Shown: positions 1,839-56,909 of the stretch, piece by piece
Numbering within the stretch: the stretch's first letter is position 1
How the letters are laid out: every line of letters starts with the position of its first letter
From: Azohydromonas sp.
GTDB lineage: Bacteria > Pseudomonadota > Gammaproteobacteria > Burkholderiales > Burkholderiaceae_C
NCBI RefSeq assembly: GCF_035325925.1
Contig: NZ_DAOKZA010000004.1
Location: forward strand, 51,745 to 115,744
Length of the DNA stretch: 64,000 nt
Direction of reading: 5' to 3'
Notes under the pieces: generated by a model
What the model saw: only the letters and a program-made list of their open reading frames with translations
Told to the model about the DNA's origin: nothing
Database searches by the model: none
Made by a program: the position numbers and the translations under genes

Positions 1839-1881
1839 TTATAGGGAGCCGTGCCGCCGGGGGCGGCGGCGTGCGCGGCAC

Positions 1882-3169: not shown

Positions 3170-3928
3170 TCAGGACGCCGCCGGTTCGACGAACAGGTGG
3201 TCGGCCAGCACGGTGACGTGGGTCAGCGGCACGAGGGGGGCGTCGTCGCCGCCGGGCGGCGCGACGGGCTGCACGACCAGTTGCAGCGTCACCTCGCACG
3301 GGCCGGCGTCGTCGAGCGCGAAGCCGTCGTCGTGGGTGTCGAACCCGAGGTAGGCGAAGCGCACCATCGTCCCTCCCTGGGGCGGCCGGCGGAACGCGCC
3401 GAACGCAAAACGCCGCGGCGACAGGTCGATCGCCGCGAGCAGCGTGCCGTCGACCCCCGCTGGGGCTGCGGTCGCGGCGTCGTGCGCGATGCTGCCGCGG
3501 TAGGCGCGCAGGAACACCCGCGACGCGTTCAGCACGCGGCGCGTGGCGGGGTCGAGCGAGGCGTCCCAGATGCGCAGCGCGAAGCGGCCGCCGAAGCGGT
3601 AGGCGCCGCGGTCGAGCCGCAGCGTCTGGTACAGCGCCGTCGGCCGGCGCGGCGTGCAAGCGGGCAGGCTGTCGTTGAGCCAGGCGACGCTGGCGCCGCG
3701 TCCGGCACGGCGGCCGGACAGCGGCGCAGGGCACGCGGCCATCACCGCACCGGCGTGCGGGCCGAACGCCGACGCCTGCCAGTCGCTCGGCCGCCGGAAC
3801 GCGCCGTCGAGTGCCTCGGTGCGTTCGAACGCCGGGTTGCACAGCAGGTTCGACGCGCGCGCCGGCGGCGACACCGGCATCCGCCACGCCGGGGCGCGCG
3901 AAGGCAGGGTGCCGATGCCGTGGATCAT
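3170..3928 (-). CDS. Hypothetical protein
   Basis: This is the only frame here with protein-like composition (F/Y/W/D/N present). ATG at 3928 is preceded by a GGGGGAAG Shine-Dalgarno-like sequence. I recognise no family. It ends in LFVEP, like the neighbouring lipoprotein. Confidence 0.45.
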   Translation of the reverse strand: MIHGIGTLPSRAPAWRMPVSPPARASNLLCNPAFERTEALDGAFRRPSDWQASAFGPHAGAVMAACPAPLSGRRAGRGASVAWLNDSLPACTPRRPTALYQTLRLDRGAYRFGGRFALRIWDASLDPATRRVLNASRVFLRAYRGSIAHDAATAAPAGVDGTLLAAIDLSPRRFAFGAFRRPPQGGTMVRFAYLGFDTHDDGFALDDAGPCEVTLQLVVQPVAPPGGDDAPLVPLTHVTVLADHLFVEPAAS

Positions 3929-4023
3929 GCGCTTCCCCCTGGGTCGTTGCACATCGCCCGCGCCGACCCTCGTCGGTGGCGTGCGTGCGGCGCGAGCATG
4001 AGCGACGAGCACCTACGGATCGC

Positions 4024-5019
4024 CTACCGATGCGCGTCGCGGCCGCGGCGGCGCGACAGCACCAGCCCCGCCAGCCCCGCACCCAGCAGCGCCAGCGTGC
4101 CCGGCAGCGGCACCGGCGTGCCGCCGCCGCGGCCCAGGAACTCGATCATCACGAAGCCGTGGCTGCTCTCGCCGAGCAGCCTGAACATGCTGCTGCCCGG
4201 GATGAAACCACCGAAGTCCTCGTTGACGAAGGAGCCGCCCCCGCCGCCGCCACCGCCCCCGGTGTCGCTGCCACCCCCGCCCCCGCCGCTGTAGCCGCCG
4301 CCGCCACCGCCGGCAAAGAAGACCGCCCCACCGCCTGCGCCGAATCCACCGTCCTGAAATCCATCGCCCCCAGCGGCGCCGAGGATCGCCGCCTCGCCGC
4401 CCCTGGCCGCACCTGCGGGCGTCCCGCCACCGCTGGTGAAGAATCCGCCGCCACCGCCGGCGCCAGAACCAGGGCCCGACGAGCTGAAGCCGGCCACGCC
4501 ACCCGTTCCGTTCGTGCCGCCCGCGCCACCGACCCCGCCGAAGGTCGCCACGCCAGCCGTGCCGTTCGGCCCGAGCGACGCGTTGCGGCCCGAGATGTCA
4601 CCGACCTGCGAGAAGATGCCCCCACCCCCGCCGCCGCCGACGACCAGGGGCATCGGCAGGCCGAGGAAGACGTTCGGGTCGGCGGGCAGGAACACGAAAC
4701 TCCCGCCGCCGCCACCGGCGGCGCCGGTCGTGGGCGGCGGCCGCATGCCGACGATGATCTGGAGCTGCTGCGTTGCGTTGAACGTGAAGATGCCCTCCGC
4801 CCAGGCGCCCAGGCCGCTCGGCCCGCCGCTCTGGACGGTGCCTCCGGCCGCACCGGCCGCGACGATGCGGTAGTCGCCGGGCTGCGTGACGTCGAACGTC
4901 TGCAGCGCGCCGGGGAAGGTGACGTTGAACAGCACCGGGGCGGCACGGGCCGCTCCGGTGGTCACGAGCAGCAGGCCGGCAGCCAGCGAGGCGGCCGCAT
5001 TGCGCAGGTACTTGAACAT
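4024..5019 (-). CDS. Glycine-rich secreted protein with a PEP-CTERM-type sorting tail
   Basis: ATG at 5019 is preceded by AAGGAG. The signal peptide is MFKYLRNAAASLAAGLLLVTTGAARA. Long GGxGG tracts follow. The C-terminus VPLPGTLALLGAGLAGLVLSRRRGR has the layout of PEP-like motif, transmembrane segment and Arg cluster. Confidence 0.8.
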   Translation of the reverse strand: MFKYLRNAAASLAAGLLLVTTGAARAAPVLFNVTFPGALQTFDVTQPGDYRIVAAGAAGGTVQSGGPSGLGAWAEGIFTFNATQQLQIIVGMRPPPTTGAAGGGGGSFVFLPADPNVFLGLPMPLVVGGGGGGGIFSQVGDISGRNASLGPNGTAGVATFGGVGGAGGTNGTGGVAGFSSSGPGSGAGGGGGFFTSGGGTPAGAARGGEAAILGAAGGDGFQDGGFGAGGGAVFFAGGGGGGYSGGGGGGSDTGGGGGGGGGSFVNEDFGGFIPGSSMFRLLGESSHGFVMIEFLGRGGGTPVPLPGTLALLGAGLAGLVLSRRRGRDAHR

Positions 5020-41981: not shown

Positions 41982-42435
41982 GCGGCGGCGCTCACCGCGC
42001 GCCGCCAGCGCCGCGGCCGAGGCGATCGAACACACGACCGGCCACATCGCCCGCCACCGGCGGGCCGCATGTCCGCTTCCCGGCCGGCACCGGCGCAGCA
42101 CGGGGCCACGCGAAGCGCGACGCGGCCGCGCACGCAGACGCACCGGCGGAGGCGACGTCGCACGGCCGGCGCGTGCAGGTGCATCACGTCCGGTCGCGAC
42201 CGGCGCCGCTGCGCACCCGGCGCGGGCAGTGCCCCGCATCCCCGGTGTCGACGCGACAGCGTGATCCCCGAGAATCGTCGCGATGGCCCGCACGCGGATC
42301 ACTGGCGCTCCCGCACTTGCCGCATCGGGGCCCGCGAGCGAGAGCCGGTCGACGGTGCCCGGCGCGTCGCCGCCGCCGGAGCCGTGCGGCGACACGGAGG
42401 CATCGCCCCGGGCCTCGGCCCCGGAGTGGCTCGCG

Positions 42436-44157
42436 ATGGCCACGCGACGCCGGCAGACGCCGAGCGCTGGTGAACGTAGCGAGACGAGGCGGCTGACGCT
42501 GCCGCTGTTGCTGTCGCTGCTGGTGCATGCACCGCTGCTCAGCCTGACTCTCGGTGACGACGGGTGGGGCCTGCCGGGTCTTGCCTGGCCCTGGCAGGAG
42601 CGCCGCGTGGTCGTGCCCGACCTGCGCGTCGTGCTGATGCCGCCGCCCGCCACGCCCGTCCCGTCACCCGACGGGCAGGCCGTGGACCCGGCGCCCGGGG
42701 TGCCGACCGAGGCCCGCAGGGCCGGACGTCCGGCGCCGGCGCCGCTGCCGGCAGCGGTGCCCCTGCCGGCGGTGCCACGCCCATGGCAGATGCCGGCTGC
42801 GGTGAGCGCACCTGCAGAGCCGCCCGCGATGCCGTTCGCGGCGATGCCGGACACCGCGGGGGTGGCGGTCGATGCGCCACAGCCCGCCGGCGAGCCCGAT
42901 CGACCGGCGCCCGACCCGACGGCGCAGGCGCCCTCGGGCCTCGGCGAGCCGACCGGCGACGCCGATCCGCTCGCCAGCGCCGCGGTGTTGGCGCAGGAGT
43001 CGGTCGTCGCCGTTGCCGCTTCCGCGTCGACCCCGCCGCAGGTGGCATCGGCGCCTCGGGAAGGCGGCGACGTGACCCGCGATGAAGCCGGGTCGCGGGA
43101 GGCCGAACGGCAGGAGGCGGCGCGCGAGGAGGCCGCACGCGAAGAGGCCGCACGCGAGGAGGCGGCGCGCGAGGAGGCCGCACGCGAGGAGGCCGCACGC
43201 GAAGAGGCCGCACGCGAGGAGGCTGCACGCGAGGAGGCTGCACGCGAGGAGGCTGCGCGACAGGACGTGGCGCGACTCGAGGCTGCGCGGGTCCGGGCCG
43301 AGCGCGAGGCGTCGGCGCGTCGGGAAGCTGCGCAGGTCGAGGCGCAGCGCCAGGAGGCGGCGCGGCAGGAGGCGGCACGCATCGAGGCTGCGCGAGCGCA
43401 GGCCGAGCGTGACGAGGCGGCGCGCATCGAGGCGGCGCGCCAGGCCGAGCGCGAGGAGGCGGAGCGGCAGGAAGCGGCACAGCGGGAAGCCGCGCGCCTC
43501 GAGGTTGCGCGGCTGCAGGCAGAGCGCGAGCAAGCAGCGCGACAGGAAGCAGCGCAACAGGAAGCGGCGCGCCATGAGGCCGCGCGCCAGGAGGCCGCGC
43601 GCCATGAGGCCGCGCGCGCCGAGGCTGCGCGCTTGCAGGCCGAGCGCGACGAGGCTGCGCGTCGGGAGGCCGCCGCGCAGGACGAGGCGCGGCGCGAGGC
43701 GGTGAAGCGGGCCATCGGGCGCCAGCTCGCCGAGGAAGCCGCGCGGCGCGAAGCCGCGGCACGGGCCGCCGCGCAGCCCGACTCGTTGCCCCATTCGCTG
43801 AGCACCGCCCGGCGCGTGCGGCTGTGGGGCTACACGCACCCCAACGCGGAACTCGTTCAGTACGCGCAGGCCTGGGCTCTGCGGATCCAGCTCAACACGC
43901 CGCACGCCACCGTGCGCGAGATCGCGAGTCGCGCGCATCGGCCACCGACGGTGGCGGTGGCCGTGCGCAGCGACGGGTCGGTGGAATCGGTGACCTTCAC
44001 GGTGTCCAGCGGTGTGCCGCAGGTGGACGAAGCGGTCCGGCGCATCGTCGAGCGCCTGCAGCCCCACACGCCGTTCCCGCCGCTGCTGGCGCGAGAGGTC
44101 GACGTGCTCGAGATCCGGCGCACCTGGCACTTCGACGCAGCCGTGCGCCTGCACTGA
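42436..44157 (+). CDS. TonB C-terminal-domain protein with an N-terminal TM anchor, a Pro-rich region and a very long E/A/R/Q-rich helical repeat region
   Basis: The anchor is RRLTLPLLLSLLVHAPLLSL. The Pro-rich stretch spans roughly aa 60-200. It is followed by (EEAAR)n and related repeats. The C-terminus VESVTFTVSSGVPQVDEAVRRIVERLQPHTPFP is TonB_C-like. ATG at 42436 is chosen; the track ORF starts at 42283. Confidence 0.8.
   Translation: MATRRRQTPSAGERSETRRLTLPLLLSLLVHAPLLSLTLGDDGWGLPGLAWPWQERRVVVPDLRVVLMPPPATPVPSPDGQAVDPAPGVPTEARRAGRPAPAPLPAAVPLPAVPRPWQMPAAVSAPAEPPAMPFAAMPDTAGVAVDAPQPAGEPDRPAPDPTAQAPSGLGEPTGDADPLASAAVLAQESVVAVAASASTPPQVASAPREGGDVTRDEAGSREAERQEAAREEAAREEAAREEAAREEAAREEAAREEAAREEAAREEAAREEAARQDVARLEAARVRAEREASARREAAQVEAQRQEAARQEAARIEAARAQAERDEAARIEAARQAEREEAERQEAAQREAARLEVARLQAEREQAARQEAAQQEAARHEAARQEAARHEAARAEAARLQAERDEAARREAAAQDEARREAVKRAIGRQLAEEAARREAAARAAAQPDSLPHSLSTARRVRLWGYTHPNAELVQYAQAWALRIQLNTPHATVREIASRAHRPPTVAVAVRSDGSVESVTFTVSSGVPQVDEAVRRIVERLQPHTPFPPLLAREVDVLEIRRTWHFDAAVRLH
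43111..43260 (+). repeat. Tandem 15-bp coding repeat, about 10 units (1x QEAAR, 9x EEAAR)
   Basis: Read directly: units of gag/gaa gag gcN gcN cgN repeat head to tail from 43111 to 43260. Degenerate related units continue to about 43770. Confidence 0.9.
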
Positions 44158-44840: not shown

Positions 44841-45437
44841 ATGCCCTGCTACGCCATCGACGGCATCGCCCCCGTCGTCGACCCCACCGCGTTCGTGCAC
44901 CCCGCCGCGGTGCTGATCGGCGACGTCATCGTCGGCCCCGGCTGCTACGTCGGCCCCTGCGCGTGCCTGCGCGGCGACATGGGCCGCATCGAGCTGCGGC
45001 GCGGCGCCAACGTGCAGGACTGCTGCGTGGTGCACAGCTTCCCGAACGGCGACGTGGTGATCGAGGAGGACGGTCACGTCGGGCACGGCGCCATCCTGCA
45101 CGGCTGCACCGTCAAGCGCGACGCGATGGTCGGCATGAACGCGGTGGTCATGGACGAGGCGGTGGTCGGCGAACAGGCGATCGTCGGCGCCTGCGCCTTC
45201 GTGCCTGCGAAGACGGTGCTGGCGCCGCGCGCGCTGGCGGTCGGTGCGCCGGCGAAGGTCGTGCGCACGCTCGACGACGAAGGCGTCGCGCGCAAGCGCG
45301 AGGGCACCGCCGTGTACCACGACCTCGCGCAGCGCTCGCTGGCGACGCTGCACGAGGTGCGCCCCGACACCGCCGTCGCGGCCGACCGGCCGCGGCTGCG
45401 GCTGCCGACGCTGCGCAGCCTGACGGGCCGGCACTGA
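44841..45437 (+). CDS. Hexapeptide-repeat gamma-carbonic-anhydrase-like protein (PaaY/CaiE-like)
   Basis: MPCYAIDGIAPVVDPTAFVHPAAVLIGDVIVGPGCYVGP...GHVGHGAILHGC is nearly colinear with the E. coli PaaY sequence as I recall it. Confidence 0.88.
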   Translation: MPCYAIDGIAPVVDPTAFVHPAAVLIGDVIVGPGCYVGPCACLRGDMGRIELRRGANVQDCCVVHSFPNGDVVIEEDGHVGHGAILHGCTVKRDAMVGMNAVVMDEAVVGEQAIVGACAFVPAKTVLAPRALAVGAPAKVVRTLDDEGVARKREGTAVYHDLAQRSLATLHEVRPDTAVAADRPRLRLPTLRSLTGRH

Positions 45438-45522: not shown

Positions 45523-46158
45523 TCACCAGCGCAGCAGCCGCGGCCCGAGGACGCCGCCCAGCAGCGCCACCAGCGCGATGCCCGCCGAGTACCACAAGGC
45601 CACGAAGGCCGGCGAGGTCTCGGTGCACGACAAGGCGTAGCCCAGCGCGCCCACCGCGCCGGCCATCAGGCCGGCCGCGAACCCGGCGGCGCGCGGGCGC
45701 GTCGTCGCCAGCCCACGCACCGCCCACAGCGCCGCCGCCAGCGCCGGCAACGACAGCGCGAACACGCTGGCCGGGCAACGGCTCCACGAGTGACCGAGGA
45801 TCGCCGCTTCGCGCGCCTGCGCCGGGGCCAGCGCGACGATGCCGGCACCGATCGCGAGCATCGCCGCCACCACGGCCGCCGCGACCAGCGCCGGTGCGCG
45901 CACGCGCGCCACCGGCCTGGACAACCGCGCCGTCAGCCAACCGGCCGCGGCGGCGAGCGCGCCGGCGTAGGCGAGCTTCATCCATGGCGCCGGCGTGCGG
46001 TACATCTCCATCGGGATGCCGCCGAGCACGGCCAGCGCCACCAGCGCGCTCGCCGCCAGGCCCAGCGCGGCCGCCGGCGCCAGCCGGCGCGCGGCCGCCG
46101 CGCGCGGTGCCGGCCCGGCGCTGCGCGCCAGCATGTCGATCAGCGTCTCGGTCTTCAT
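45523..46158 (-). CDS. nrsF: NrsF-family (DUF1109) membrane anti-sigma factor
   Basis: The N-terminus is MKTETLIDMLARSAGP, followed by six hydrophobic segments. It lies directly downstream of the ECF sigma gene. Confidence 0.85.
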   Translation of the reverse strand: MKTETLIDMLARSAGPAPRAAAARRLAPAAALGLAASALVALAVLGGIPMEMYRTPAPWMKLAYAGALAAAAGWLTARLSRPVARVRAPALVAAAVVAAMLAIGAGIVALAPAQAREAAILGHSWSRCPASVFALSLPALAAALWAVRGLATTRPRAAGFAAGLMAGAVGALGYALSCTETSPAFVALWYSAGIALVALLGGVLGPRLLRW

Positions 46159-46183
46159 CGTCGTCCCGCCGGGAGTCGGGCGC

Positions 46184-46738
46184 TCAGCGCCGCACCCATG
46201 CCGCCAGCCGCCTGAGCCCGCGGTGCACCTGCACCTTGACCGCCGACTCCGACGCGCCGGTGCGCAGCGCGGCTTCGGCCACCGACAGCCCCTCGATCTT
46301 GGTCAGCACGATCGCCTGCCGCTGCGCCGCCGGCAACGCGTCGAGCAGCTGCTGCAGGTCGCGGCTCGCGCCGCCGTCGTCAGGCGCGGCGGCCAGCAGC
46401 TGCTCGTCGACGTCGTCGAGCGCGTCGTGCAGGTGCTCGCGGCGCCCGCGACGCCGCCACAGGTCGACCAGCTTGTGGCGCGCGATCGCCACCACCCAGG
46501 CGCTGACCGGCAGCGCCGGGTCGTAGGTGCCGCGCTGCAGGTGCAGCGCGAGCAGGGTCTCTTGCACCAGATCCTCCACTTCGTCGGGCACGTCGCGCAG
46601 GCGCCTCTTCAGGTAGCCGCGCAGCCGCGTGGCGATGCGCCGCAGGCTCTCGCGGTAGGCCGCCTCGTCGCCGGCCTGCGCACGCAGCCACAGCGGCTTC
46701 AGGGCCGACTCGAACTCGCTGCCGGCGTCGTCGGACAC
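46184..46738 (-). CDS. sigF: ECF (group IV) RNA polymerase sigma factor, sigmaF-type
   Basis: Region 2 is EDLVQETLLALHLQRGTYD...WVVAIARHKLVDLWRR. Region 4 is LPAAQRQAIVLTKIEGLSVAEAALRTGASESAVKVQVHRGL. A GTG start at 46738 is proposed; see the finding on the conflict with the adjacent promoter motif. Confidence 0.88.
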   Translation of the reverse strand: MSDDAGSEFESALKPLWLRAQAGDEAAYRESLRRIATRLRGYLKRRLRDVPDEVEDLVQETLLALHLQRGTYDPALPVSAWVVAIARHKLVDLWRRRGRREHLHDALDDVDEQLLAAAPDDGGASRDLQQLLDALPAAQRQAIVLTKIEGLSVAEAALRTGASESAVKVQVHRGLRRLAAWVRR

Positions 46739-46764
46739 TTCGTCGTGCGGGGCACTCTGGTTAC
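46739..46764 (-). promoter_or_regulatory. ECF-type promoter motif GTAACC-N16-CGAA upstream of the sigma gene
   Basis: The minus strand reads TGTAACC agagtgccccgcacga CGAA GTG. The same motif and spacing occur at 49605-49630 (-) and 49669-49694 (+). Confidence 0.5.
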
Positions 46765-46935
46765 AGCGGCCGCAGCGGACGCCGGGGTCGGTGCGAACCT
46801 GCACACCCGGCGCCGATTCTGCCGCTGCCGAGCCCGACGTCCGCGCGACGGCGACGCCGCGGTCGCGATGGCGCAAGCGCCGCGAACCCGTCCGCCGCCA
46901 CGGGTGCGGCGCGACCGTCGCCGCAGCCAGCGCGC

Positions 46936-47478
46936 TCAACGGCGGGCGATCAGGTGGTCGATCGCGATCACGCCGGGGCCTCGCGAGATCAGCCACAGCA
47001 GCACCGCCGCCCATACCCCGTGCGTCGCGTAGGCGCCGGGGTAGACGAGGAACTGGATCACCGCCGTCATCACCAGCAGCCCCAGCGCGGCAACGCGCGT
47101 GCCCAGCCCGATCAGCAGCAGCAGCGGCAGCACGTGTTCGCCCACCGCGGCGAGCAGCGCGGCCGACTCGGGCGGCAGCAGCGGCAGGCGGTATTCGTCG
47201 CGGAACAGCGCGACGGCCGACGGCGCGAGGCGCGGCACGCCCCATTCGAAGTGGCCGCCGACGATGTCGATCGCCAGCCCCTCGACCTTGGTCTGGCCCG
47301 AGCTCCAGAACACCGCGGCCACCGAGAAGCGCCCGAGCAGCGCGACCGCCGAATGCGGCAACGCCGACATCCAGCGCAGCGCGCCGTCGCGCATCGCGCG
47401 CAGCGGGCTCGAAATGCCGTGCGCGCCGGGCGCGGGCGCCGCGGTGCGCGACGGGGTGGGCGTCGGGGAGGCGGTCAT
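46936..47478 (-). CDS. bufD: DoxX-family membrane protein (BufD/GigT-like position)
   Basis: GRFSVAAVFWSSGQTKV and HVLPLLLLIGLGTRVAALGLLVMTAVIQFLVYP are present. The ATG overlaps the upstream stop (ATGA). Confidence 0.88.
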   Translation of the reverse strand: MTASPTPTPSRTAAPAPGAHGISSPLRAMRDGALRWMSALPHSAVALLGRFSVAAVFWSSGQTKVEGLAIDIVGGHFEWGVPRLAPSAVALFRDEYRLPLLPPESAALLAAVGEHVLPLLLLIGLGTRVAALGLLVMTAVIQFLVYPGAYATHGVWAAVLLWLISRGPGVIAIDHLIARR

Positions 47479-48275
47479 GGCGGGCCGTCGGTGGGTGAGC
47501 GAGCGGGCGACAGGCCGACCACGGCGCCGTGCCGCAGCAGCGTCGCCAGCACGCGGGTCGTCGACGCGTCGGGGTGGGTGCGGGCGGCGGCGCCGAGCCC
47601 GTGCCCGGCGGCGAGCGCGTGCACCAGGTCGGCGTCCGCGGCGGCCAGCGGCACGACGAGCACCTCGTCGTGCGGGCGAAGCACCAGCGCGGCTTGCGGC
47701 GTGCCGAGGTCGATGCCGGCCAGCGCCGCGTCGCGCGCGGTCGCGTCGAGCTGGTGCGCGCGCCACAGCGAGACCGCCGGATGCGCACTGCGCAGCCACC
47801 GCAGCGAAGGGTGCAGCGCGAGCGCGGTGGCGTCCAGCGCGTCGGGGTCGTGCAGCCGCAGGGCCAGCGCCTGCGGGTCGATCGCGTCGGCGTCGGCCGC
47901 GTGCTGCGCCTGCCAGCGCATCCACTCCAGGCGCGCGACGTCGGGCAGGTACGGCAAGGCCGCCGCCGGCGCGAAGCCGGCGAGCCAGCCGGCGAACGCG
48001 GCGCCGTAGTCGCCCATCACCGGCGACCGCGGCGGATGCGCGTCGACGTGCTCGCGCGCCATCGCGTCGAAGAACGCGTCGCCGACCAGCGCGACGACCA
48101 CGGGGAAGGTGTCGCCCAGCACGCCGATCAGCGATGCGACGACGTTGTTGCGGTGGACCGCGAAGCGCACCGACACGTCGGAACCGTTCCACGCCACCAG
48201 ACCCGCGGGCACCGGGGCGCACGGGTCGAGCAGCGCCGCGGCGATGGCGTGCTGCGCGGGCGGCGCCGGGCGCAT
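47475..48275 (-). CDS. bufC: DUF2063 protein, partner of the MNIO enzyme (BufC-like)
   Basis: AAALLDPCAPVPAGL...RFAVHRNNVVASLIGVLGDTFPVVVALVGDAFFDAMAREH...PPRSPVMGDYG is the DUF2063 signature. Confidence 0.85.
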   Translation of the reverse strand: MRPAPPAQHAIAAALLDPCAPVPAGLVAWNGSDVSVRFAVHRNNVVASLIGVLGDTFPVVVALVGDAFFDAMAREHVDAHPPRSPVMGDYGAAFAGWLAGFAPAAALPYLPDVARLEWMRWQAQHAADADAIDPQALALRLHDPDALDATALALHPSLRWLRSAHPAVSLWRAHQLDATARDAALAGIDLGTPQAALVLRPHDEVLVVPLAAADADLVHALAAGHGLGAAARTHPDASTTRVLATLLRHGAVVGLSPARSPTDGPP

Positions 48276-48283
48276 GGTCGGCC

Positions 48284-49168
48284 TCAGGCGACGGCGGCGC
48301 GCCGCCGGTCGACGACGGCGTCGCGCTGCAGCTGCGCCGCGCGCGCGGCCTCGGCCTCGAGCCGCGCCAGCGGCGGCACGTCGTGGTCGCGCTCGATCAG
48401 CGTCGGCACCGGCCCCAGCCGCTCGATCGTGCGTGCGTACAGCGCCCACACCGCGGCGCCGACGTCCGAACCGTGGTCGTCGATCAGCAGCCGATCGCCG
48501 GCGGCGTCGCGGTCGACGGCGTGCCCGGCGAGGTGGATCTCGGCGACGGCCGCCGCGGGCAGGGCCTCGATCAGCGTCCAGGGGTCGCCGCCGTGGTTGA
48601 CGGCGCTGACGTAGGCGTTGTTCACGTCGAGCAGCAGCGCGCACCCGGTGCGGCGCACCACCTCGGCGAGCAAGCCGCCCTCGTCCATCGTCGACGCGGC
48701 GAAGCCGAGGTAGGTGCTGGGGTTCTCGAGCAGCATGCGCCGGCACAGCCGCTCCTGCACCCGGTCGACGTGGTCGCACACGCGGCGCAGCGTCGGCAGG
48801 TCGTACGGCAGCGGCAGCAGGTCGTTGAACCAGTGGCCACCGTGGCTCGACCAGGCCAGGTGCTCGCTGAACCAGCGCGGCTCGAGACGATCGAGCAGCG
48901 CGGCCAGGCGGTCCAGGTGCGCCTCGTCGAGCGGGCCCTCGCCGCCGATCGACAGGCCCACGCCGTGGACCGACAGCGGCCAGCGTTCGCGCAAGCGCAG
49001 CAGGTCGCGCCGCCACGGCCCGCCGTCGGCCATGCAGTTCTCGGCGTGCACCTCGAAGAACGGCGCGGCGCGGATGGCCGGCTCGCGGTCGGGCTGCAGC
49101 AGTTCGCGCAGGTGCATCGGCTTCAGGCCGATGCCGCACAGGATCGACGCGGGTTCGTCCATCGGCAC
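48284..49168 (-). CDS. bufB: DUF692 multinuclear non-heme iron oxidative enzyme (MNIO; BufB/MbnB-like)
   Basis: GIGLKPMHLRELL, FFEVHAEN, SVHGVGLSIGG, WFSEHLAW, LLENPSTY, LLLDVNNAYVS, EIHLAGH and LIERD are all present as TIM-barrel metal-ligand blocks. Confidence 0.92.
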   Translation of the reverse strand: MPMDEPASILCGIGLKPMHLRELLQPDREPAIRAAPFFEVHAENCMADGGPWRRDLLRLRERWPLSVHGVGLSIGGEGPLDEAHLDRLAALLDRLEPRWFSEHLAWSSHGGHWFNDLLPLPYDLPTLRRVCDHVDRVQERLCRRMLLENPSTYLGFAASTMDEGGLLAEVVRRTGCALLLDVNNAYVSAVNHGGDPWTLIEALPAAAVAEIHLAGHAVDRDAAGDRLLIDDHGSDVGAAVWALYARTIERLGPVPTLIERDHDVPPLARLEAEAARAAQLQRDAVVDRRRAAVA

Positions 49169-49196
49169 GACGGGCGACGGCGGGCGCGTGGCGTGC

Positions 49197-49508
49197 TCAG
49201 GCCTGCTTCTCCTTGAACGCCTGCAGCTGGCCGAAGCCGGTCGACGAGGTCGTGCTGTCGGTCTTCTCGCAGGTTCCCTTGGGCACCAGCTTCCAGGCGT
49301 TGCCCTGGTGGTCGCGCGTGCTGGTGCCGGCGCACGTGGTGCCGGGCCCCGCGGCGCAGTCGTTCTTGCCCTTCAGGGCCACGCCGTAGCACTTCTCGGT
49401 GTCGGCCGACGGCGCCTGCGCCTGTGCGGACGCCTGCGCCAGCGACAGCGCGGTGCCGATGGCCAGCGCGAGCGCGGCGGTGTGGGCGGCGGTGGGGTGA
49501 GCATGCAT
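49197..49508 (-). CDS. bufA: DUF2282 secreted Cys-containing peptide: bufferin-type RiPP precursor
   Basis: ATG at 49508 is preceded by AAGGAGA. The Sec signal is [30 protein letters not shown]. The core [45 protein letters not shown] carries 4 Cys in the DUF2282 pattern. Confidence 0.88.
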
Positions 49509-49604: not shown

Positions 49605-49630
49605 TTCGTCGCCACGCAGGCCCGCGTTAC
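49605..49630 (-). promoter_or_regulatory. ECF-type promoter motif GTAACG-N16-CGAA upstream of bufA
   Basis: The minus strand reads TGTAACG cgggcctgcgtggcga CGAA, about 97 nt upstream of the bufA ATG. Confidence 0.5.
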
Positions 49631-49668: not shown

Positions 49669-49694
49669 GTAACCGGCGCCGCCCCGGCGGCGAA
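49669..49694 (+). promoter_or_regulatory. ECF-type promoter motif GTAACC-N16-CGAA upstream of the radical-SAM gene
   Basis: The plus strand reads TGTAACC ggcgccgccccggcgg CGAA, ending 47 nt upstream of the ATG at 49742. Confidence 0.5.
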
Positions 49695-49741: not shown

Positions 49742-50743
49742 ATGCACGACACGCTGCCGCTGCTCGCCGACACCGACTTCCCGCCGCTGCGCCGGCGTCG
49801 CCTCGACACGCTACAGGTCAACCTGGGCTACCGCTGCAACCAGCGCTGCCTGCACTGTCACGTCGACGCCGGGCCGAACCGCACCGAGGCGATGGACGCC
49901 GCGACGGTCGACCTGCTGCTCGAGGTGCTGCGCGCCCGCCGCGTGGCCACGCTGGACCTCACCGGCGGTGCGCCCGAGCTGAACCCGCAGTTCCGCCGCC
50001 TGACGGCGTCGGCGCGCGCGCTCGGCGTGCGCGTGATCGACCGCTGCAACCTGACCATCCTGTCCGAGCCCGGGCAGGAGGACCTGGCGGGGTTCCTCGC
50101 GGCGCACGGCGTGGAGGTCACCGCGTCGCTGCCTTGCTATTCACCGGCCAACGTCGACCGCCAGCGCGGCGACGGCGTGTTCGGGCGCAGCATCGCGGGG
50201 CTGCGCCGGCTCAACGCGCTCGGCTACGGCGACGGCGGTGCGCTCGTGCTGAACCTCGTCTACAACCCGCAGGGCCCGTCGCTGCCGCCGCCGCAGGCGG
50301 CGCTCGAGGCCGACTACAAGCGCGAGCTGATGGCGCACTTCGGCATCCGCTTCGACCGCCTGTTCGCGCTGGCCAACATGCCGATCCGGCGCTTCGGCAG
50401 CACGCTCGTCAGCAAGGGCACGTTCGCCGCTTACATGGCGCTGCTGCGCAGCGCGCATCGCGACGACAACCTCGACACCGTGATGTGCCGCGAACTGGTC
50501 AGCGTTGACTGGCGCGGTGACCTGTACGACTGCGACTTCAACCAGATGCTCGGGCTGCCCGCGCGCCTGGCCGGGCGGCCGCGCGCGCACCTGCGCGACC
50601 TGCTGCGCCACGACCCGGCCGGCGAGGCGATCCGCGTGGCCGACCACTGCTACGGCTGCACCGCCGGCCAGGGCAGCAGCTGCGGCGGGGCGCGGGGGGG
50701 GGGGGTGCAACCGGCCGAGGCGCCGCCCGCCGGGGCGGCGTGA
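49742..50743 (+). CDS. arsS: Radical SAM/Cys-rich-domain protein (ArsS-like family)
   Basis: The radical-SAM motif CNQRCLHCH is present, with a C-terminal Cys-rich tail [15 protein letters not shown]. The family is named for arsenosugar biosynthesis in cyanobacteria. No arsM is present here, so the function is probably different. Confidence 0.9.
50694..50705. repeat. Homopolymeric G12 tract inside the last 17 codons of the radical-SAM gene
   Basis: Read directly: cgc + 12 g + tgcaacc, encoding ..RGGGV.. It ends 35 nt before the start of the overlapping downstream gene. Confidence 0.9.
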
Positions 50744-52908
50744 TGGCCGCGCGGTCGCGCCGCGCGCTGTGGCTCGGGGCCGGCGCCGCCGCGATCGCCG
50801 CCGCCTGGGCCTACCTGCACTTCGACCTCGGCGCGCTGCTCACGTTCGAGCAGCTCAAGGCCAGCCGCGACGCGCTGGTCGGCGCGTACCAGGCGCGCCC
50901 GGCCGCGACGCTGGCGGCGTTCTTCGCGGTCTACGTGGCGGCCACGGCGCTGTCGATCCCCGGCGCGCTGGTGCTGACGCTGGCCGCCGGCGCGATGTTC
51001 GGGCTGGGTGTGGGGCTGGTGGTGGTCAGCTTCGCGTCCAGCCTGGGCGCGCTGCTGGCGTTCCTGGTCGCGCGCCACCTGCTGCGCGACGCGGTGCAGT
51101 CGCGCTTCGGCGCGTCGCTGGCACCGATCAACGACGGCGTGCGACGCGACGGTGCGCTGTACCTGCTGACGCTGCGCCTGGTGCCGGTGTTCCCGTTCTG
51201 GCTGATCAACCTGCTGATGGGGCTGACGCCGATCACCGCGCTGCGCTACTACGTGGTCAGCCAGCTCGGCATGCTGCCGGGCACCGCGGTGTACGTGAAC
51301 GCCGGCACGCAGCTGGCGTCGATCGCGTCGGCGCGCGACATCCTGTCGCCGGCGCTGCTGGGCAGCTTCGTGCTGCTGGGGCTGTTCCCCTTCGTCGCCC
51401 GGGCGGGCGTCGGCTGGCTGCAGCAACGCAAGGTCTATGCGAAGTGGCCGCGGCCGAAGCGCTTCGAGCGCGACCTGGTGGTCATCGGCGCCGGCGCCGG
51501 CGGGCTGGTGTCGGCCTACATCGGCGCGGCCGTGAGGGCCGAGGTGACCCTGGTCGAGGGCCACCGCATGGGAGGCGACTGCCTGAACACCGGCTGCGTG
51601 CCGAGCAAGGCGCTGATCCGCTCGGCCAGGCTGGCGCGGCAGCTGCGCGACGCCGCCTCGCTGGGCCTGAAGGACGTGCAAGGCGAGGTCGACTTCGCCG
51701 CGGTGATGCAGCGCGTGCAGCGCGTGATCGGCGACATCGCGCCGCACGACTCGGTCGAGCGCTACGCCGGCCTGGGCGTCGAGGTGCTGCAGGGCCACGC
51801 GCGCATCACCAGCCCGTGGACGGTGCAGGTGCGGCTGCACGACGGCGGCACGCGCACGCTGACCACGCGCAGCATCGTCGTCGCCGCCGGCGCCGCCCCC
51901 TTCGTGCCGCCGATCCCGGGGCTGCGCGAGGCCGGCTGCCTGACCAGCGAGACGCTGTGGGGCCTGCGCGTGCTGCCGAGGCGACTGCTGGTGCTCGGCG
52001 GCGGGCCGATCGGCTGCGAGCTGGCGCAGGCCTTCGCGCGGCTCGGATCGCAGGTCACGCAGGTCGAGATGGCGCCGCGCCTGCTCGGGCGCGAGGACCC
52101 CGAGGTGTCGCAACGGGTGGCCGCCGCGCTGCGCGACGACGGCGTGGCGGTGCTCACCGGCCACGAGGCGGTGCGCGTCGAGGTGGTCGACGGCGAGAAG
52201 CGGCTCGTCGCGCGGCACGAAGGCCGGCAGGTCGTGGTCGCGTACGACGAACTGCTGTGCGCGGTCGGACGCAGCCCGCGCGTGAGCGGCTACGGGCTCG
52301 AGGCGCTGGGCATCGCGCCGGCGCCGGGGAAGGCGATCGAGACCGACGCCTGGCTGCGCACGCGCGTCCCGAACGTCTACGCGGTGGGCGACGTCGCGGG
52401 CCCGTTGCAGTTCACGCACGTCGCCGCACACCAGGCGTGGTACGCCGCGGTCAACGCGCTGTTCGGGCGCTTCGGGCGTTTCAGGGTCGACTACCGCGTG
52501 ATCCCGTGGACGACGTTCACCGACCCGGAGGTCGCGCGCGTGGGCCTGTCGGAGGCCGAGGCGCGCGAGCAGGGCATCGCCGTCGAGGTGACGCGCTACG
52601 GCATCGACGACCTCGACCGTGCGATCGTCGACGGCACCGCGCACGGCTTCGTCAAGGTGCTGACGGTGCCGGGCAAGGACCGCATCCTCGGCGTGACCAT
52701 CGTCGGCGAACACGCCGGCGACCTGCTGGCCGAGTACGTGCTGGCGATGAAACACGGCCTGGGGCTGAACAAGATCCTGGGCACGATCCACACCTACCCG
52801 ACGCTGGCCGAGGCGAACAAGCACGCCGCCGGCGCGTGGAAGCGCGCGCACGCGCCGCAGAAGCTGCTGGACTGGGTGGCGCGTTATCACGCGTGGGAGC
52901 GGGGCTGA
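50740..52908 (+). CDS. Fusion: DedA/TVP38-type membrane domain plus class I pyridine-nucleotide-disulfide oxidoreductase (mercuric-reductase/lipoamide-dehydrogenase-like)
   Basis: The N-terminal ~230 aa are polytopic (LRLVPVFPFWLINLLMG). They are followed by DLVVIGAGAGG, the redox-active GGDCLNTGCVPSK, and the C-terminal HTYPTLAE dyad. The start overlaps the arsS-like stop (GTGA, or ATG at 50743). Confidence 0.9.
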   Translation: MMAARSRRALWLGAGAAAIAAAWAYLHFDLGALLTFEQLKASRDALVGAYQARPAATLAAFFAVYVAATALSIPGALVLTLAAGAMFGLGVGLVVVSFASSLGALLAFLVARHLLRDAVQSRFGASLAPINDGVRRDGALYLLTLRLVPVFPFWLINLLMGLTPITALRYYVVSQLGMLPGTAVYVNAGTQLASIASARDILSPALLGSFVLLGLFPFVARAGVGWLQQRKVYAKWPRPKRFERDLVVIGAGAGGLVSAYIGAAVRAEVTLVEGHRMGGDCLNTGCVPSKALIRSARLARQLRDAASLGLKDVQGEVDFAAVMQRVQRVIGDIAPHDSVERYAGLGVEVLQGHARITSPWTVQVRLHDGGTRTLTTRSIVVAAGAAPFVPPIPGLREAGCLTSETLWGLRVLPRRLLVLGGGPIGCELAQAFARLGSQVTQVEMAPRLLGREDPEVSQRVAAALRDDGVAVLTGHEAVRVEVVDGEKRLVARHEGRQVVVAYDELLCAVGRSPRVSGYGLEALGIAPAPGKAIETDAWLRTRVPNVYAVGDVAGPLQFTHVAAHQAWYAAVNALFGRFGRFRVDYRVIPWTTFTDPEVARVGLSEAEAREQGIAVEVTRYGIDDLDRAIVDGTAHGFVKVLTVPGKDRILGVTIVGEHAGDLLAEYVLAMKHGLGLNKILGTIHTYPTLAEANKHAAGAWKRAHAPQKLLDWVARYHAWERG

Positions 52909-52935: not shown

Positions 52936-53661
52936 TCAGCCGCGCCACACGCCCAGCTCGACGAGCTGTCGCGTCGCCGCGTCGGCCCAGCCGCGGTTGG
53001 CCGCGGGGCTGGCCGGGCTGGGGTGCAGCATGCGGCCGATGCGCAGCCCGCGCACGTCGGCCAGCGCCGCTGCGGCGCGCGCGTGCGCCCACTGGCCGAC
53101 GCCGACCACCCACTCGGGCGCCAGCGCGTCGACCAGCGCACGCAGGTGCGCGTCGCACGCGGCGAGCAGCGGGCGCTGCTCGGCCGCGGGCAGCTTGTCG
53201 GGCGTGAGGTTGCGCGCGCCGACGAAGAACACCAGCGGGCAGTAGTTGGCAACGAAGTGCCCGGCGAAGAAGGCCTGCGGCGTGCCGAAGCGCGCGCGGA
53301 ACAGCCCCCACAGCCGCTGGCCGCTGACTTCGGCGCGCGGGCAGTCGAAGCCCATCACCGGGCGCTTCGGGTGGGGCCTGCGCGGCTGGCCGACGGGGCC
53401 CGCGAGCGCGAGCCAGTCACGCACCGCGGCCACCTCGCCGAACGGCACGCCGGTCTGCGCCATGCCGAACGGGCCCGGGTTCATGCCGACGAAGAGCACG
53501 CGGCGGCGGCCGTCGCCGTAGCGCTCGAGGTAGCGGCGGTGCACGTCCCACGCGTAGTCGAGCGGGTTGAGCACGTGCGTCACCGGCGCCGCGAAGCGCA
53601 GGCGGTCGACCGCGTGCGACAGCCGGTGCGCCGCGTCGACCAGTGCGGCGGCCGTCGTCAC
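52936..53661 (-). CDS. Family-3 (SMUG1-type) uracil-DNA glycosylase
   Basis: GMNPGPFGMAQTGVPFG and LHPSPASP are the two SMUG-type catalytic motifs. The start is GTG. Confidence 0.85.
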   Translation of the reverse strand: MTTAAALVDAAHRLSHAVDRLRFAAPVTHVLNPLDYAWDVHRRYLERYGDGRRRVLFVGMNPGPFGMAQTGVPFGEVAAVRDWLALAGPVGQPRRPHPKRPVMGFDCPRAEVSGQRLWGLFRARFGTPQAFFAGHFVANYCPLVFFVGARNLTPDKLPAAEQRPLLAACDAHLRALVDALAPEWVVGVGQWAHARAAAALADVRGLRIGRMLHPSPASPAANRGWADAATRQLVELGVWRG

Positions 53662-53864
53662 TGGTCGCTGCGCGCCGCGACGACGGCGAACGCACCGGCG
53701 CCGCAGCCCGGGCGCACCGGTTCGATGTCGCGCACCGCGGCCACGGTGCCGGTCAGCGTCTGCGCGGGCATCGCCGGCAGTCCGCTGGCGCAGGCCGCGC
53801 CGTGGCGGCCGAACCAGGCCTCGCAGCGGTCGGTGTGGCGTTCGAACGGTTCGGCCAGCGGCAT
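53658..53864 (-). CDS. Doubtful short ORF, possibly the remnant of a SAM-methyltransferase N-terminus
   Basis: MPLAEPFERHTDRCEAWFGRHGAACASGL... faintly resembles the Y/FDAWFERH start of small class I methyltransferases, but the glycine-rich motif is degenerate. It overlaps both neighbouring genes. Confidence 0.25.
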   Translation of the reverse strand: MPLAEPFERHTDRCEAWFGRHGAACASGLPAMPAQTLTGTVAAVRDIEPVRPGCGAGAFAVVAARSDQ

Positions 53865-53925
53865 CGCGGCGCCTCGACGCACGGCGCGCGCCGTGCCGCG
53901 CCTCGACGCATGGTACGCCGGCGCG

Positions 53926-55056
53926 TCAGCGGTACGCACGCAGGTAGTGCCACTCGAACAGCCGCTTGGCCCAGTGCAGCAGGCGCGACGGCGGCAGCAG
54001 CACGTTGCGGCGTTCGCTGCGGTAGACCAGCGTGCCGCGGTCGAGCGCGTCGACGATGCACACCAGCTCGACCTTGAAGGTGGCGCGGCAGTCGTCGCCC
54101 GCCAGGTCGCCGAGCAGGTTCGCGGCCGCGGCCGCGGCCTGCAGGTCGGCCATGTGCGCCTGCTTGGGCATCCAGTCGGGCCCGGGGAAGCTGCCCGAGT
54201 CGCCGACCACGTACACGCGCGGCCAGCCGGGCACGCGGCAGTGTGCGTCGGCCTGCACCAGCCCGCCCGGCGAGCGCGGCAGGTCGGTGGCGTCGAACCA
54301 GGCGTTGCCGGTCATGCCCGGCATGAACAGGATCAGGTCGGCGGCGAAGCCGCCGCCTGCGGTGGTCACGCGGTCGGCGTCGAGGCGTTCGAGCTTGTGC
54401 CCCAGGTGGGTGCGGATGCCGCGCCGCGCCATCTCGGCCAGCAGGTGCGCCACCGCCTTCGGGCCCAGGCGGTTGCCCGGCTCGGCGGCGGGGCTGAAGA
54501 ACACCAGCTCGAAGCGCTCGCGCCGGCCTTCGCGTCGCAGCTGGCGGTCGATGCCGAACAGGAACTCGAACATCGGCCCGCCGCGCACCGCGCTGGGCTC
54601 GTTCGGGTTGCCGGCGAAGCCCACCGCGATCGTGCCGCCGTTCATCGCCGCGAGCCGGTCGCGGATGCGCTCGGCGCTGGCCACGCCTTCGCACGGCGTG
54701 ATCGCGTGTTCGATGCCCGGCAGCTTCCTCAGGAAGCGTCCGCCGGTGGCGATGACGAGCGCGTCGTTGGCGACGTCGCCGGCGCTGGTGTGCACGACGC
54801 GGCCGCGGTCGGCCAGCCCCGTGGCCTCGGCGGCGACGAAGCGCACGCGATGGCGGCGCAGGAAGCGCTGCAGCGGCACCACCAGCTGCTCGCGCCGGCG
54901 CAGCCCGCTGGGGATCCAGATGATGCCCGGCAGGTAGTGCAGCTCGGCGCGCGGCGCCACCAGCGTGATCTCGGCGTCGCGGTCGCGCCGGCGCAGCGCG
55001 CGCACCGTCGACAGCGCCGCGAAGCCCGCGCCGAGCACGGTGATGCGCGCGGTCAT
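53926..55056 (-). CDS. NAD(P)/FAD-dependent oxidoreductase (NDH-2 / sulfide:quinone-reductase-like fold)
   Basis: The N-terminal dinucleotide fold is ITVLGAGFAALSTVRAL, and a second one is present (GGTIAVGFAG). The stretch YVVGDSG is also present. Confidence 0.88.
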   Translation of the reverse strand: MTARITVLGAGFAALSTVRALRRRDRDAEITLVAPRAELHYLPGIIWIPSGLRRREQLVVPLQRFLRRHRVRFVAAEATGLADRGRVVHTSAGDVANDALVIATGGRFLRKLPGIEHAITPCEGVASAERIRDRLAAMNGGTIAVGFAGNPNEPSAVRGGPMFEFLFGIDRQLRREGRRERFELVFFSPAAEPGNRLGPKAVAHLLAEMARRGIRTHLGHKLERLDADRVTTAGGGFAADLILFMPGMTGNAWFDATDLPRSPGGLVQADAHCRVPGWPRVYVVGDSGSFPGPDWMPKQAHMADLQAAAAAANLLGDLAGDDCRATFKVELVCIVDALDRGTLVYRSERRNVLLPPSRLLHWAKRLFEWHYLRAYR

Positions 55057-55105
55057 GGCCGCTGCGCGTCGCGCACCGGGTGAGGCTGCGATGGCGGGCG
55101 GTTCG

Positions 55106-55729
55106 TCACGCGGCCGCCGCGTCGTCGTCGCCGATCAGCAGCCGGCTGGCGCCCACATAGCGGTGCGGCGGGACCTCGAGGTTGGTCGGCGCGGGCTTGT
55201 TCTTGTACACGCGCCCGGCGCCGTCGAAGGTCGATCCGTGGCACGGGCAGAAGAAGCCGCCGGGCCAGTCGGCACCGACGCCGGGGTTGGCGCTGCCGGC
55301 GGGCACCGCGGTGGGCGAGCAGCCCAGGTGCGTGCAGATGCCCACCGCGACGAACACGTCGGGCTCGATCGAGCGCGTGGCGTTGCGCGCGTACTCGGGC
55401 TGCTGCGGCCGCGCCGACCGCGGGTCGGCGAGTTCGGGGTCGGCCCGCTCGACGGCGGCGATCATCTCGGGCGTGCGGCGCACGATCCACACCGGCTTGC
55501 CGCGCCACTCGACGGTCTTCATGCCGCCGGGCGGGATGTCGGCGATGTCGACCTCGACCGACGCGCCCAGCGCCTTGGCGCGCTCGCTGGGCGTGAACGT
55601 CGCGACGAAGGGCACCGCGGTGCCGACGGCGGCGACGCCGCCGGCCGCGCCGGTGGCGAGCAGCCACGTGCGCCGGTCGGGGTCCATCGGGCCCGGCGGG
55701 GCCGGGTTCGGCAGGGCATGGCTGCTCAT
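55106..55729 (-). CDS. petA: Rieske iron-sulfur subunit of ubiquinol-cytochrome c reductase type (PetA-like), without petB/petC
   Basis: A Tat-like signal is present (DRRTWLLATGAAGGVAAVG), together with VEWRGKPVWIVRRTPE and the Rieske boxes CTHLGC and CPCHGS. Confidence 0.9.
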   Translation of the reverse strand: MSSHALPNPAPPGPMDPDRRTWLLATGAAGGVAAVGTAVPFVATFTPSERAKALGASVEVDIADIPPGGMKTVEWRGKPVWIVRRTPEMIAAVERADPELADPRSARPQQPEYARNATRSIEPDVFVAVGICTHLGCSPTAVPAGSANPGVGADWPGGFFCPCHGSTFDGAGRVYKNKPAPTNLEVPPHRYVGASRLLIGDDDAAAA

Positions 55730-55844
55730 CGTCGCTCCTCGGGGCACGTTGCGTGCGTCGTTCGTCTTTATACCACGTGGGGTATAGAAGACCTCACCCC
55801 CTGCCGCGATGCAGGTTGATCGGCGCAGCGCCACAATCGCCCGC

Positions 55845-56909
55845 ATGACCGCCGCCGACATGTTCCGCTCGCGCCTGGGCCTGCGCTGGCCGCTGGTGCA
55901 GGCGCCGATGGCCGGGGTGCAGGGTGCGGCGCTGGCCATCGCGGCGTCGCGCGCCGGCGCGCTGGGCTCGCTGCCTTCGGCGCAGTTCGCGCTGCCGGCG
56001 CTGCGCGAGGAGGCCGGCGCACTGGCCGCCGCGCTGCGCGCCGACCGGCTGCCGTGGGCGCTGAACTTCTTCGCCCACCGCGCCCCGGCGGTCGACGCGG
56101 CGCGCGAGGCGCGCTGGCGCGCCGCGCTGGCGCCGTTCCACGCCGAGGCCGGCATCGACGTCGCGGCCGTGCCCGCCGGGGCCGGTCGCATGCCGTTCGA
56201 CGCCGCCGCCGCCGAGGTCGTCGAGGCGCTGCGCCCGCCGGTGGTGAGCTTCCACTTCGGCCTGCCCGAGCCGGCGCTGCTCGGGCGCGTGAAGGCGCTG
56301 GGTTGCCTCGTGATGAGCTCGGCGACCACCGTCGACGAGGCGCGCTGGCTGGCCGCGCGAGGCTGCGACGCGATCATCGCGCAGGGGCTCGAGGCCGGCG
56401 GCCACCGCGGCCACTTCCTCGACGACGACCTGACGCGGCAGGCCGGCACGTTCGCGCTGCTGCCGCAGGTGGTGCGCGCGGTCGCGCTGCCGGTGCTGGC
56501 CGCCGGCGGCATCGCCGACGCCGCGGGCGTGCGCGCCGCGATGGCGCTGGGCGCGGCCGGCGTGCAGGTCGGCAGCGCGTTCCTGCTGTGCCCGCAGGCG
56601 ACGACCACCGAACTGCATCGCACCGCGCTGCGCTCGCCGCGCGCGGCGCACACCGCGCTGACCAACCTGATCACCGGGCGGCCGGCGCGCGGCATCGTCA
56701 ACCGCCTGATGCGCGAGCTCGGCCCGATGAGCGACGCGCCGCCGGCGTTCCCGCTGGCCACCGCGGCGATCGCGCCGTTGCGCGCCTGGGCCGAGGCACG
56801 CGGCGCCGACGACTTCTCGCCGCTGTGGTGCGGCCAGCATCCGCCGCGCTTCGACGGCGTGCCGGCCGGCGAGGTCGTGCAGGCGCTGGGCGCCGGCTTC
56901 GACGGCTGA
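55845..56909 (+). CDS. Nitronate monooxygenase (NMO / 2-nitropropane dioxygenase family)
   Basis: PLVQAPMAGVQGAALA, GCDAIIAQGLEAGGHRG and AAGGIAD are present. The alternative start is ATG at 55809. Confidence 0.88.
   Translation: MTAADMFRSRLGLRWPLVQAPMAGVQGAALAIAASRAGALGSLPSAQFALPALREEAGALAAALRADRLPWALNFFAHRAPAVDAAREARWRAALAPFHAEAGIDVAAVPAGAGRMPFDAAAAEVVEALRPPVVSFHFGLPEPALLGRVKALGCLVMSSATTVDEARWLAARGCDAIIAQGLEAGGHRGHFLDDDLTRQAGTFALLPQVVRAVALPVLAAGGIADAAGVRAAMALGAAGVQVGSAFLLCPQATTTELHRTALRSPRAAHTALTNLITGRPARGIVNRLMRELGPMSDAPPAFPLATAAIAPLRAWAEARGADDFSPLWCGQHPPRFDGVPAGEVVQALGAGFDG

Follow-up and report, generated by a model that had tools for sequence, protein, structure and literature searches.

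In this study we analysed a window of 64,000 nucleotides from Azohydromonas sp. (contig NZ_DAOKZA010000004.1 of assembly GCF_035325925.1). With high confidence, its minus strand carries, between positions 45523 and 49508, a complete and intact Buf1-type bufferin cluster, together with the genes of an ECF16-type extracytoplasmic function (ECF) sigma factor and its NrsF anti-sigma factor. Three sigmaF-type promoter motifs lie in the window, two on the cluster's own strand and one facing a divergent arsS-like gene pair that is a tentative second output of the same regulatory switch.

Gene content of the cluster

The window has a G+C content of about 74% and its raw lists of open reading frames (ORFs) are crowded by spurious frames; the minus strand was read directly. 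The six ORFs are intact and co-directional. The first gene, bufA (49197..49508), encodes a Sec-exported DUF2282/BufA1-type precursor of 103 amino acids with cysteines at 40, 51, 59 and 80, and a GGAGAG Shine-Dalgarno sequence stands 6-7 nt ahead of its ATG. It is followed by bufB (48284..49168, starting at GTG 49168 or ATG 49162), coding for a multinuclear non-heme iron oxidase (MNIO) of the DUF692 family, and directly downstream by bufC (47475..48275), coding for a DUF2063 partner of PME-type 1. The gene of a DoxX-family membrane protein, bufD/doxX (46936..47478), overlaps bufC by ATGA at 47475-47478. Beyond a 197-bp non-coding gap (46739-46935) with a promoter-like motif inside lie the gene of the sigF/rpoQ-like sigma factor (46184..46738, 184 amino acids, GTG start) and, 25 nt further, nrsF (45523..46158), which encodes a DUF1109 membrane anti-sigma factor. 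A preliminary description of this DNA, made from its letters alone, had reported these six co-directional genes and the ATGA overlap; both were confirmed, and its coordinates were exact.

Family membership was examined with profile models. All six proteins scored well over the Pfam gathering scores, with nearly the full model covered, in agreement with the families named in the preliminary description. BufA matched DUF2282 (PF10048) at residues 38-85 with 86.3 bits (cut-off 22.4), BufB matched MbnB_TglH_ChrH with 330.8 bits, BufC matched DUF2063 (PF09836) with 85.8 bits over model positions 3-83 of 83, and the membrane protein matched DoxX (PF07681) with 57.0 bits. The sigma protein contained Sigma70_r2 (47.0 bits) and Sigma70_r4_2 (57.7 bits) and no other Pfam domains, while NrsF matched the NrsF model over all 204 positions (1-204) with 196.1 bits. 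BufB also scored 350.7 with the curated NCBIfam equivalog model MNIO_BufB (NF050167, 'MNIO family bufferin maturase'), over its cut-off of 310, and the HvfB, MbnB, ApyH and ChrH models all remained far under their own cut-offs. The nearest solved structure to BufB was 3BWW (E 8e-41), followed by TglH and MbnB, all of them DUF692/MNIO proteins; a PDB sequence search gave no solved relative of BufC. Six ENA metagenome contigs from the same species had this gene order too, with proteins 97-100% identical. The closest named genomes were metagenome-assembled genomes of Rubrivivax, Caldimonas and Methylibium, with a BufB identity of at most 77%, which marks the source as an uncultured, Rubrivivax-like member of the Burkholderiales.

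The BufA precursor

The peptide strings quoted in the preliminary description (including the core [25 protein letters not shown]...KGTCEK) were correct, as were the four cysteines. These have a spacing of 11/8/21 and were invariant in an alignment of 22 homologues. The core peptide of Caulobacter BufA1 has 68 amino acids, with cysteines at 12, 23, 31 and 52 (PMC11626156), and thus the identical spacing. Caulobacter BufA1 was compared by means of the residue numbers printed in PMC11626156. With an offset of 28, Caulobacter E10, C12, D22, C23 and C31 correspond directly to E38, C40, D50, C51 and C59, and A32, K45, V47 and C52 to A60, K73, V75 and C80; the only differences among the BufA1 residues named there are at K24 and S30. 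The same offset corresponds to signal-peptide cleavage after the ASA site at Ala28. By inspection, residues 7-21 of BufA are hydrophobic, and the AxA sites AQA, ASA and AQA come next at 24-30. BufA is therefore predicted to have, at its N-terminus, a Sec signal peptide, whose cleavage after Ala28 would give the Caulobacter core numbering.

In Caulobacter Buf1 the outer cysteine pair forms a disulfide and the central pair alone is converted to 5-thiooxazole, and the copper-binding product is shifted by -10 Da (PMC11626156). The preliminary description spoke of conversion of the precursor's cysteines to thiooxazoles. By homology, this would hold for the central two, but not for the outer two, which are joined by a disulfide in the characterised Buf1; two of the four BufA cysteines, rather than all four, are thus expected to be converted.

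The polar C-terminal tail of BufA ([23 protein letters not shown]) had been described as an unusual extension. Compared with the 16-residue tail of Caulobacter BufA1, it has only about 7 extra residues. A homologue search over 5.8 billion proteins returned thousands of DUF2282 relatives, and the best 120 homologues (Rubrivivax, Caldimonas, Methylibium, Pseudomonas and many metagenomes) were nearly all 98-111 amino acids long. Homologues at 72-78% identity bear the name 'BufA1 family periplasmic bufferin-type metallophore' in NCBI or UniRef. In the 22 aligned sequences the tail was among the best-conserved parts, with S85, S88, T90, G91, G93 and Q94 invariant and F98-K-E-K nearly so. By these alignments the tail is a feature of the clade, not peculiar to this locus, and its conservation points to a function. 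A PDB sequence search gave no solved relative of the precursor.

The sigma factor, NrsF and their layout among relatives

NrsF contains exactly two cysteines, C128 and C178, spaced by 50 residues. In Caulobacter NrsF, C131 and C181 are also 50 apart, are functionally important and are needed for NrsF to hold the sigma factor (PMC3511200). The N-terminus of the sigma factor at the 184-amino-acid start aligns with the ATG starts of 16 relatives. Metagenome contigs L001-L006 carry a sigma model of 251 amino acids, which has a TTGA overlap with doxX and takes in 46739-46939. This model was rejected as a probable over-extension because its 67 extra codons have a non-coding-like composition (G+C at the three codon positions of 0.76/0.70/0.84, compared to 0.82/0.47/0.96 in the gene), because the extension is not conserved (stops occur 3-16 codons upstream of the 184-amino-acid start in relatives) and because it contains the promoter motif.

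The layout of these genes was surveyed by tblastn in 80 species-representative loci around BufB relatives. About 20 related species-level loci carry a sigma gene nearby. In eight of these (L010, L011, L020, L022, L027, L034, L052 and L067), the sigma and nrsF genes lie downstream of doxX and are co-directional, while in five betaproteobacterial loci, as well as in several alphaproteobacterial and Thiocapsa loci, they lie upstream and are divergent. The preliminary description had the pair fused into the transcriptional direction of the bufferin genes and saw this as distinctive. The pair is co-directional, but it is not fused, being set apart by the 197-bp gap with its promoter-like motif, and the arrangement is shared by those eight loci. 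Moreover, sigma and NrsF genes have already been listed as parts of Buf1 clusters, NrsF occurring near 12% and sigma-70 domains near 21-23% of MNIO genes (PMC12452194). A later survey has covered the broader class again and given it a name (PMC13097082).

Comparison with characterised systems

The likeness to the Caulobacter bufferin and Cupriavidus gig systems that had been noted in the preliminary description was borne out, the locus being of the Buf1 type with an ECF16-type sigma factor and NrsF. It shares with Caulobacter vibrioides buf1ABCD (CCNA_03363-03366) and sigF-nrsF the four biosynthetic genes in the same order, a DUF2282 precursor with a Sec signal peptide, an adjacent ECF16 sigma and DUF1109 anti-sigma pair, and GTAACC-N16-CGAA promoters before bufA and sigF (PMC11626156, PMC3511200). 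To judge by the gene numbering, sigF-nrsF is upstream and divergent in Caulobacter, in contrast to the downstream, co-directional pair of this locus. In Cupriavidus metallidurans, gigPABT is likewise a betaproteobacterial four-gene gig/bufferin operon beside an ECF16 sigma/anti-sigma pair (rpoQ-rsqA), and has been linked to copper and gold stress (PMC10304878, PMC13492112); there, rpoQ-rsqA is on the opposite strand. Bradyrhizobium japonicum ecfF-osrA and Azospira suillum sigF-nrsF are ECF16/DUF1109 pairs with the same promoter consensus (PMC3420878, PMC4436054), but their regulons have yedYZ/msrPQ-type and methionine-rich peptide genes at their centre, not a bufferin cluster, and answer to reactive oxygen or chlorine species.

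Several observations weigh against assigning this locus to a sigmaF-controlled bufferin system of the Caulobacter kind. NrsF was under the cut-off of the NCBIfam NrsF equivalog NF042994 (136.5 against 300), and the sigma factor barely attained a subfamily model, so orthology to Caulobacter sigmaF/NrsF holds at the family level. In Cupriavidus, dependence of gig on RpoQ could not be demonstrated, while here an ECF16 motif precedes bufA. The AlphaFold model of BufA, built on the 22-sequence alignment, was poor, with a predicted local distance difference test (pLDDT) score of 45; in favour of the assignment, it placed beta-strands at 37-41 and 72-76 even at this low confidence, and the matching segments of Caulobacter Buf1 have been reported to pair (PMC11626156). 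The promoter box next to the sigma start codon, considered below, is a further difficulty. Finally, the inducers of ECF16/NrsF systems differ: Cr/Cd in Caulobacter (PMC3511200), H2O2 in Bradyrhizobium (PMC3420878) and chlorite/HOCl in Azospira (PMC4436054).

These last two cases suggest that the sigma/NrsF pair could be mainly a switch for oxidative or chlorine stress, with the bufferin acting as a sacrificial or redox peptide instead of a copper buffer, and the predicted co-regulated neighbours are indeed redox enzymes (a disulfide reductase, a radical SAM protein and DoxX). We consider this unlikely, although it is the strongest of the alternatives, as the characterised Buf1 is a copper binder that guards against copper stress, metals induce its operon, and no yedYZ/mrpX-type genes adjoin the present locus.

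SigmaF-type promoter motifs and transcription units

The ECF16/sigmaF consensus tGTAACc-N16-CGAA was established experimentally in Caulobacter (PMC3511200) and Bradyrhizobium (PMC3420878). It occurs at three sites in the 64-kb window, compared to 0.02 expected, and a relaxed pattern added none. Site 1 (49605..49630, minus strand; tGTAACG-N16-CGAA) is the predicted bufA promoter, 96 nt before the bufA ATG. Site 2 (46739..46764, minus strand; tGTAACC-N16-CGAA) is the predicted motif of the sigma gene, and its 3' end abuts the sigma GTG. Site 3 (49669..49694, plus strand), a perfect tGTAACC-N16-CGAA back-to-back with site 1, is predicted to be a promoter facing arsS, 47 nt before the arsS ATG.

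Conservation of the motif was analysed in 81 species-level loci (871 kb), allowing up to 1 mismatch within 250 nt upstream and on the same strand. Of 78 related loci, 32 had the motif upstream of bufA; it also preceded the sigma gene in 11 of 17 and the arsS-like gene, at a distance of 35-68 nt, in 11 of 13 species-level loci, with 9 exact matches. By contrast, it was absent upstream of bufB (0/82), bufC (0/77), doxX (0/59), nrsF (0/15) and the reductase gene (0/15) in the related loci. Thirty of the 40 exact motifs in the 871 kb were located just upstream of bufA, sigma or arsS-like genes.

A terminator and promoter scan and folding of the doxX-sigma gap revealed no terminator or unusually stable fold, nothing beyond chance, which makes read-through from the bufA promoter plausible. 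No match was obtained in an Rfam scan of the whole window, and a leader RNA element in the 96-nt 5' region of bufA is thus unsupported.

The preliminary description had called the six genes a complete operon. A single six-gene unit is unlikely because a sigmaF-type motif sits directly before the sigma gene, and the cluster is probably better described as overlapping sigma-dependent units. The contrary explanation is that all six genes are transcribed from the bufA promoter alone, the motif before the sigma gene being a remnant or a binding site and the one facing arsS a product of chance. This would fit the terminator-free gap, the awkward position of the sigma-proximal motif against a start codon, and the fact that five relatives with short doxX-sigma gaps (L010, L011, L022, L027 and L034) have no motif there. 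Nevertheless, it is improbable given three exact or near-exact motifs where almost none would be expected, the recurrence of the sigma-proximal motif in an unchanged position in at least 8 relatives at the level of genera, the arsS-facing motif in most species-level loci and in all six close metagenomic loci, and the autoregulation of sigF from such a promoter in Caulobacter and Bradyrhizobium.

In PMC13492112 the ECF16 consensus is given as -35 AATTCG and -10 GGTTAC, which reads as the reverse complement of tGTAACc-N16-CGAAtt. This reversal might explain why no ECF16 motif was found there before rpoQ or gig in Cupriavidus.

A promoter-motif box next to the start codon of the sigma gene

A CGAA or CGAC box abuts or overlaps the sigma start codon both in the window and in at least seven relatives (L007, L020, L025, L030, L047, L052 and L053), while in L032 the CGAC box is located 10 nt further upstream of the aligned sigma start. 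Bradyrhizobium shows the same quirk: the ecfF transcript starts 6 bp past the -10 box and overlaps the annotated ATG, and the authors moved the start codon downstream (PMC3420878). If the distance from promoter to transcription start is taken from Bradyrhizobium, a transcript starting about 6 nt past the -10 box would lack the sigma start codon here. The Bradyrhizobium-style shift of the start fails in this case, as the sigma segment has a coding-type substitution pattern from 'DFE' onward and no alternative in-frame start exists ahead of 'DFE'. The mRNAs could be leaderless, transcription then beginning unusually close to the -10 box. It is also possible that the autoregulatory transcript is devoid of the sigma start codon and serves mainly nrsF; more speculatively, transcripts translating nrsF alone may provide built-in negative feedback.

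The divergent arsS-like and VTT-reductase genes

Site 3 precedes a gene for an ArsS-family radical SAM protein with Radical_SAM and DUF3641 domains (49742..50743, plus strand). The protein exceeded the TIGR04167 cut-off (442.9 against 300), matched Pfam DUF3641 with 183 bits, and has a CxxxCxxC motif (cysteines 32/36/39) and C-terminal cysteines at 303/306/314. The next gene (50740..52908, plus strand) overlaps arsS by 4 nt and encodes a 722-amino-acid protein in which a VTT/DedA membrane domain is fused to a class-I pyridine-nucleotide disulfide oxidoreductase (Pfam VTT_dom, Pyr_redox_2 and Pyr_redox_dim). It has a CxxxxC pair at 281/286, and its last cysteine is at 507, leaving no C-terminal pair. 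MerA was rejected as an identity for this reductase (TIGR02053 372.6 against a cut-off of 454, C-terminal cysteine pair absent), and so was lipoamide dehydrogenase, with a score under the cut-off. The pair resembles the TIGR04167 'rSAM-selenodomain' cassette, which consists of a radical SAM protein and a pyridine-nucleotide disulfide reductase with or without two glycosyltransferase-like genes. To our knowledge, an arsenosugar function of ArsS has been shown only in cyanobacteria.

The relatives of ArsS were surveyed in 80 metagenomic ArsS loci. The six closest homologues (at least 76% identity) all carry the motif, 36-57 nt upstream; two of these six loci are divergent from sigF-nrsF and one is divergent from bufA. 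Among more distant homologues the motif was found in only 3 of 70. Pairing of ArsS with a disulfide reductase is widespread on its own, being present in 29 of the 80 loci. The pair of this locus and its close relatives differs from the general ArsS cassette in having a predicted ECF16 promoter and in adjoining bufferin or sigF-nrsF genes. It also differs from the published Caulobacter regulon, which comprises buf1, buf2 and a yedY-like gene but no arsS-like/VTT-reductase pair. In the literature searched, no paper linked NrsF/ECF16 or bufferins with the ArsS-type radical SAM family, and Pyr_redox_2 near 11% of MNIO genes stands uncommented in a published co-occurrence table (PMC12452194).

The conservation of site 3 in 11 of 13 genomes and at all six of the closest ArsS loci suggests that the regulon is extended in this clade in a way apparently not described before. 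In this reading, a radical-SAM/reductase module that already existed was drawn into the sigmaF regulon of a Rubrivivax-like clade. That the pair is a second output recruited there by the ECF16 sigma/NrsF switch is a tentative reading, to which we give slightly less than even weight.

In L002, from a strain of the same species whose NrsF and Buf proteins are 100% identical, the segment after arsS is replaced (L002 positions 994-4830) by a gene for a 488-amino-acid reductase without VTT (64% identity), then a GT2 glycosyltransferase gene and a DUF2064 gene. This arrangement is the fuller 'rSAM/selenodomain-associated' cassette.

Flanking genes

The flanking genes are of ordinary housekeeping types. 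A hexapeptide protein of the PaaY/CaiE-like kind is encoded at 44844-45437 on the plus strand, convergent with nrsF. Beyond the reductase gene, 52936-56909 carries genes for a UDG-family protein, an SQR-like flavoprotein, a Rieske protein, a nitronate monooxygenase and PutA. The immediate neighbours checked included no further metal-resistance genes. At 42283-44157 (plus strand) lies the gene of a 624-amino-acid protein with a TonB C-terminal domain. It contains a repeat (43098-43682) of about 39 tandem 15-nt units encoding (E/Q)EAAR-type pentapeptides, and the length of the protein varies by strain (563 amino acids in L001, 624 in L002 and L003).

Proposed mechanism and significance

By homology with Caulobacter Buf1, BufA would be made with a Sec signal peptide, and in the cytoplasm BufB and BufC would oxidise Cys51 and Cys59 to 5-thiooxazoles. 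BufA would then be exported and cleaved near Ala28, Cys40 and Cys80 would form a disulfide, and the product of about 75 residues would chelate excess periplasmic copper. Gene content, family assignments, the match of individual residues, and where the motif occurs and is conserved were read from the sequences; the chemistry, the inducing signal and the activity of the promoters are extrapolated here from the characterised systems. An origin in the oxazolin/HvfABC (EGKCG-repeat) branch, or methanobactin-like oxazolone-thioamide pairs in place of 5-thiooxazoles, is very improbable: although BufB also matches the HvfB model (226.8 bits), BufC and DoxX weakly match HvfC and HvfX, 3BWW comes from an Hvf-type locus and the chemistry of such modifications is debated in recent preprints, the HvfB score is far under its cut-off of 360 while BufB passes its own, BufA has the DUF2282 signature and four spaced cysteines without EGKCG repeats, and later work backs 5-thiooxazole for the whole MNIO-PME1 class.

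In the proposed regulation, NrsF would keep the sigma factor membrane-bound until metals or oxidants, as thiol-reactive stress, act on the two periplasm-facing cysteines of NrsF. The freed sigma factor would fire the three predicted tGTAACc-N16-CGAA promoters: the one before bufA, with probable read-through into sigF-nrsF, the second at the start of the sigma gene, and the third driving the divergent arsS-like radical SAM and VTT-fused disulfide reductase pair.

Publications from 2012 to 2026 have described the family, its chemistry, its copper role and the association with sigma and anti-sigma factors, and these proteins already bear names in current NCBI models. Taken as a bufferin cluster, the locus brings nothing new; its value is that of a clean example for promoter questions. 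One of these is the recurrent placement of the predicted autoregulatory promoter against the sigma start codon, which raises the question of how feedback is wired in ECF16 systems. The predicted, conserved ECF16 promoter facing arsS is a modest new lead. If site 3 is active, it would tie copper/thiol-stress signalling to a widespread radical-SAM cassette of unknown function and give the arsS-like/reductase cassette its first regulatory and physiological context, which could reveal the purpose of this uncharacterised cassette.

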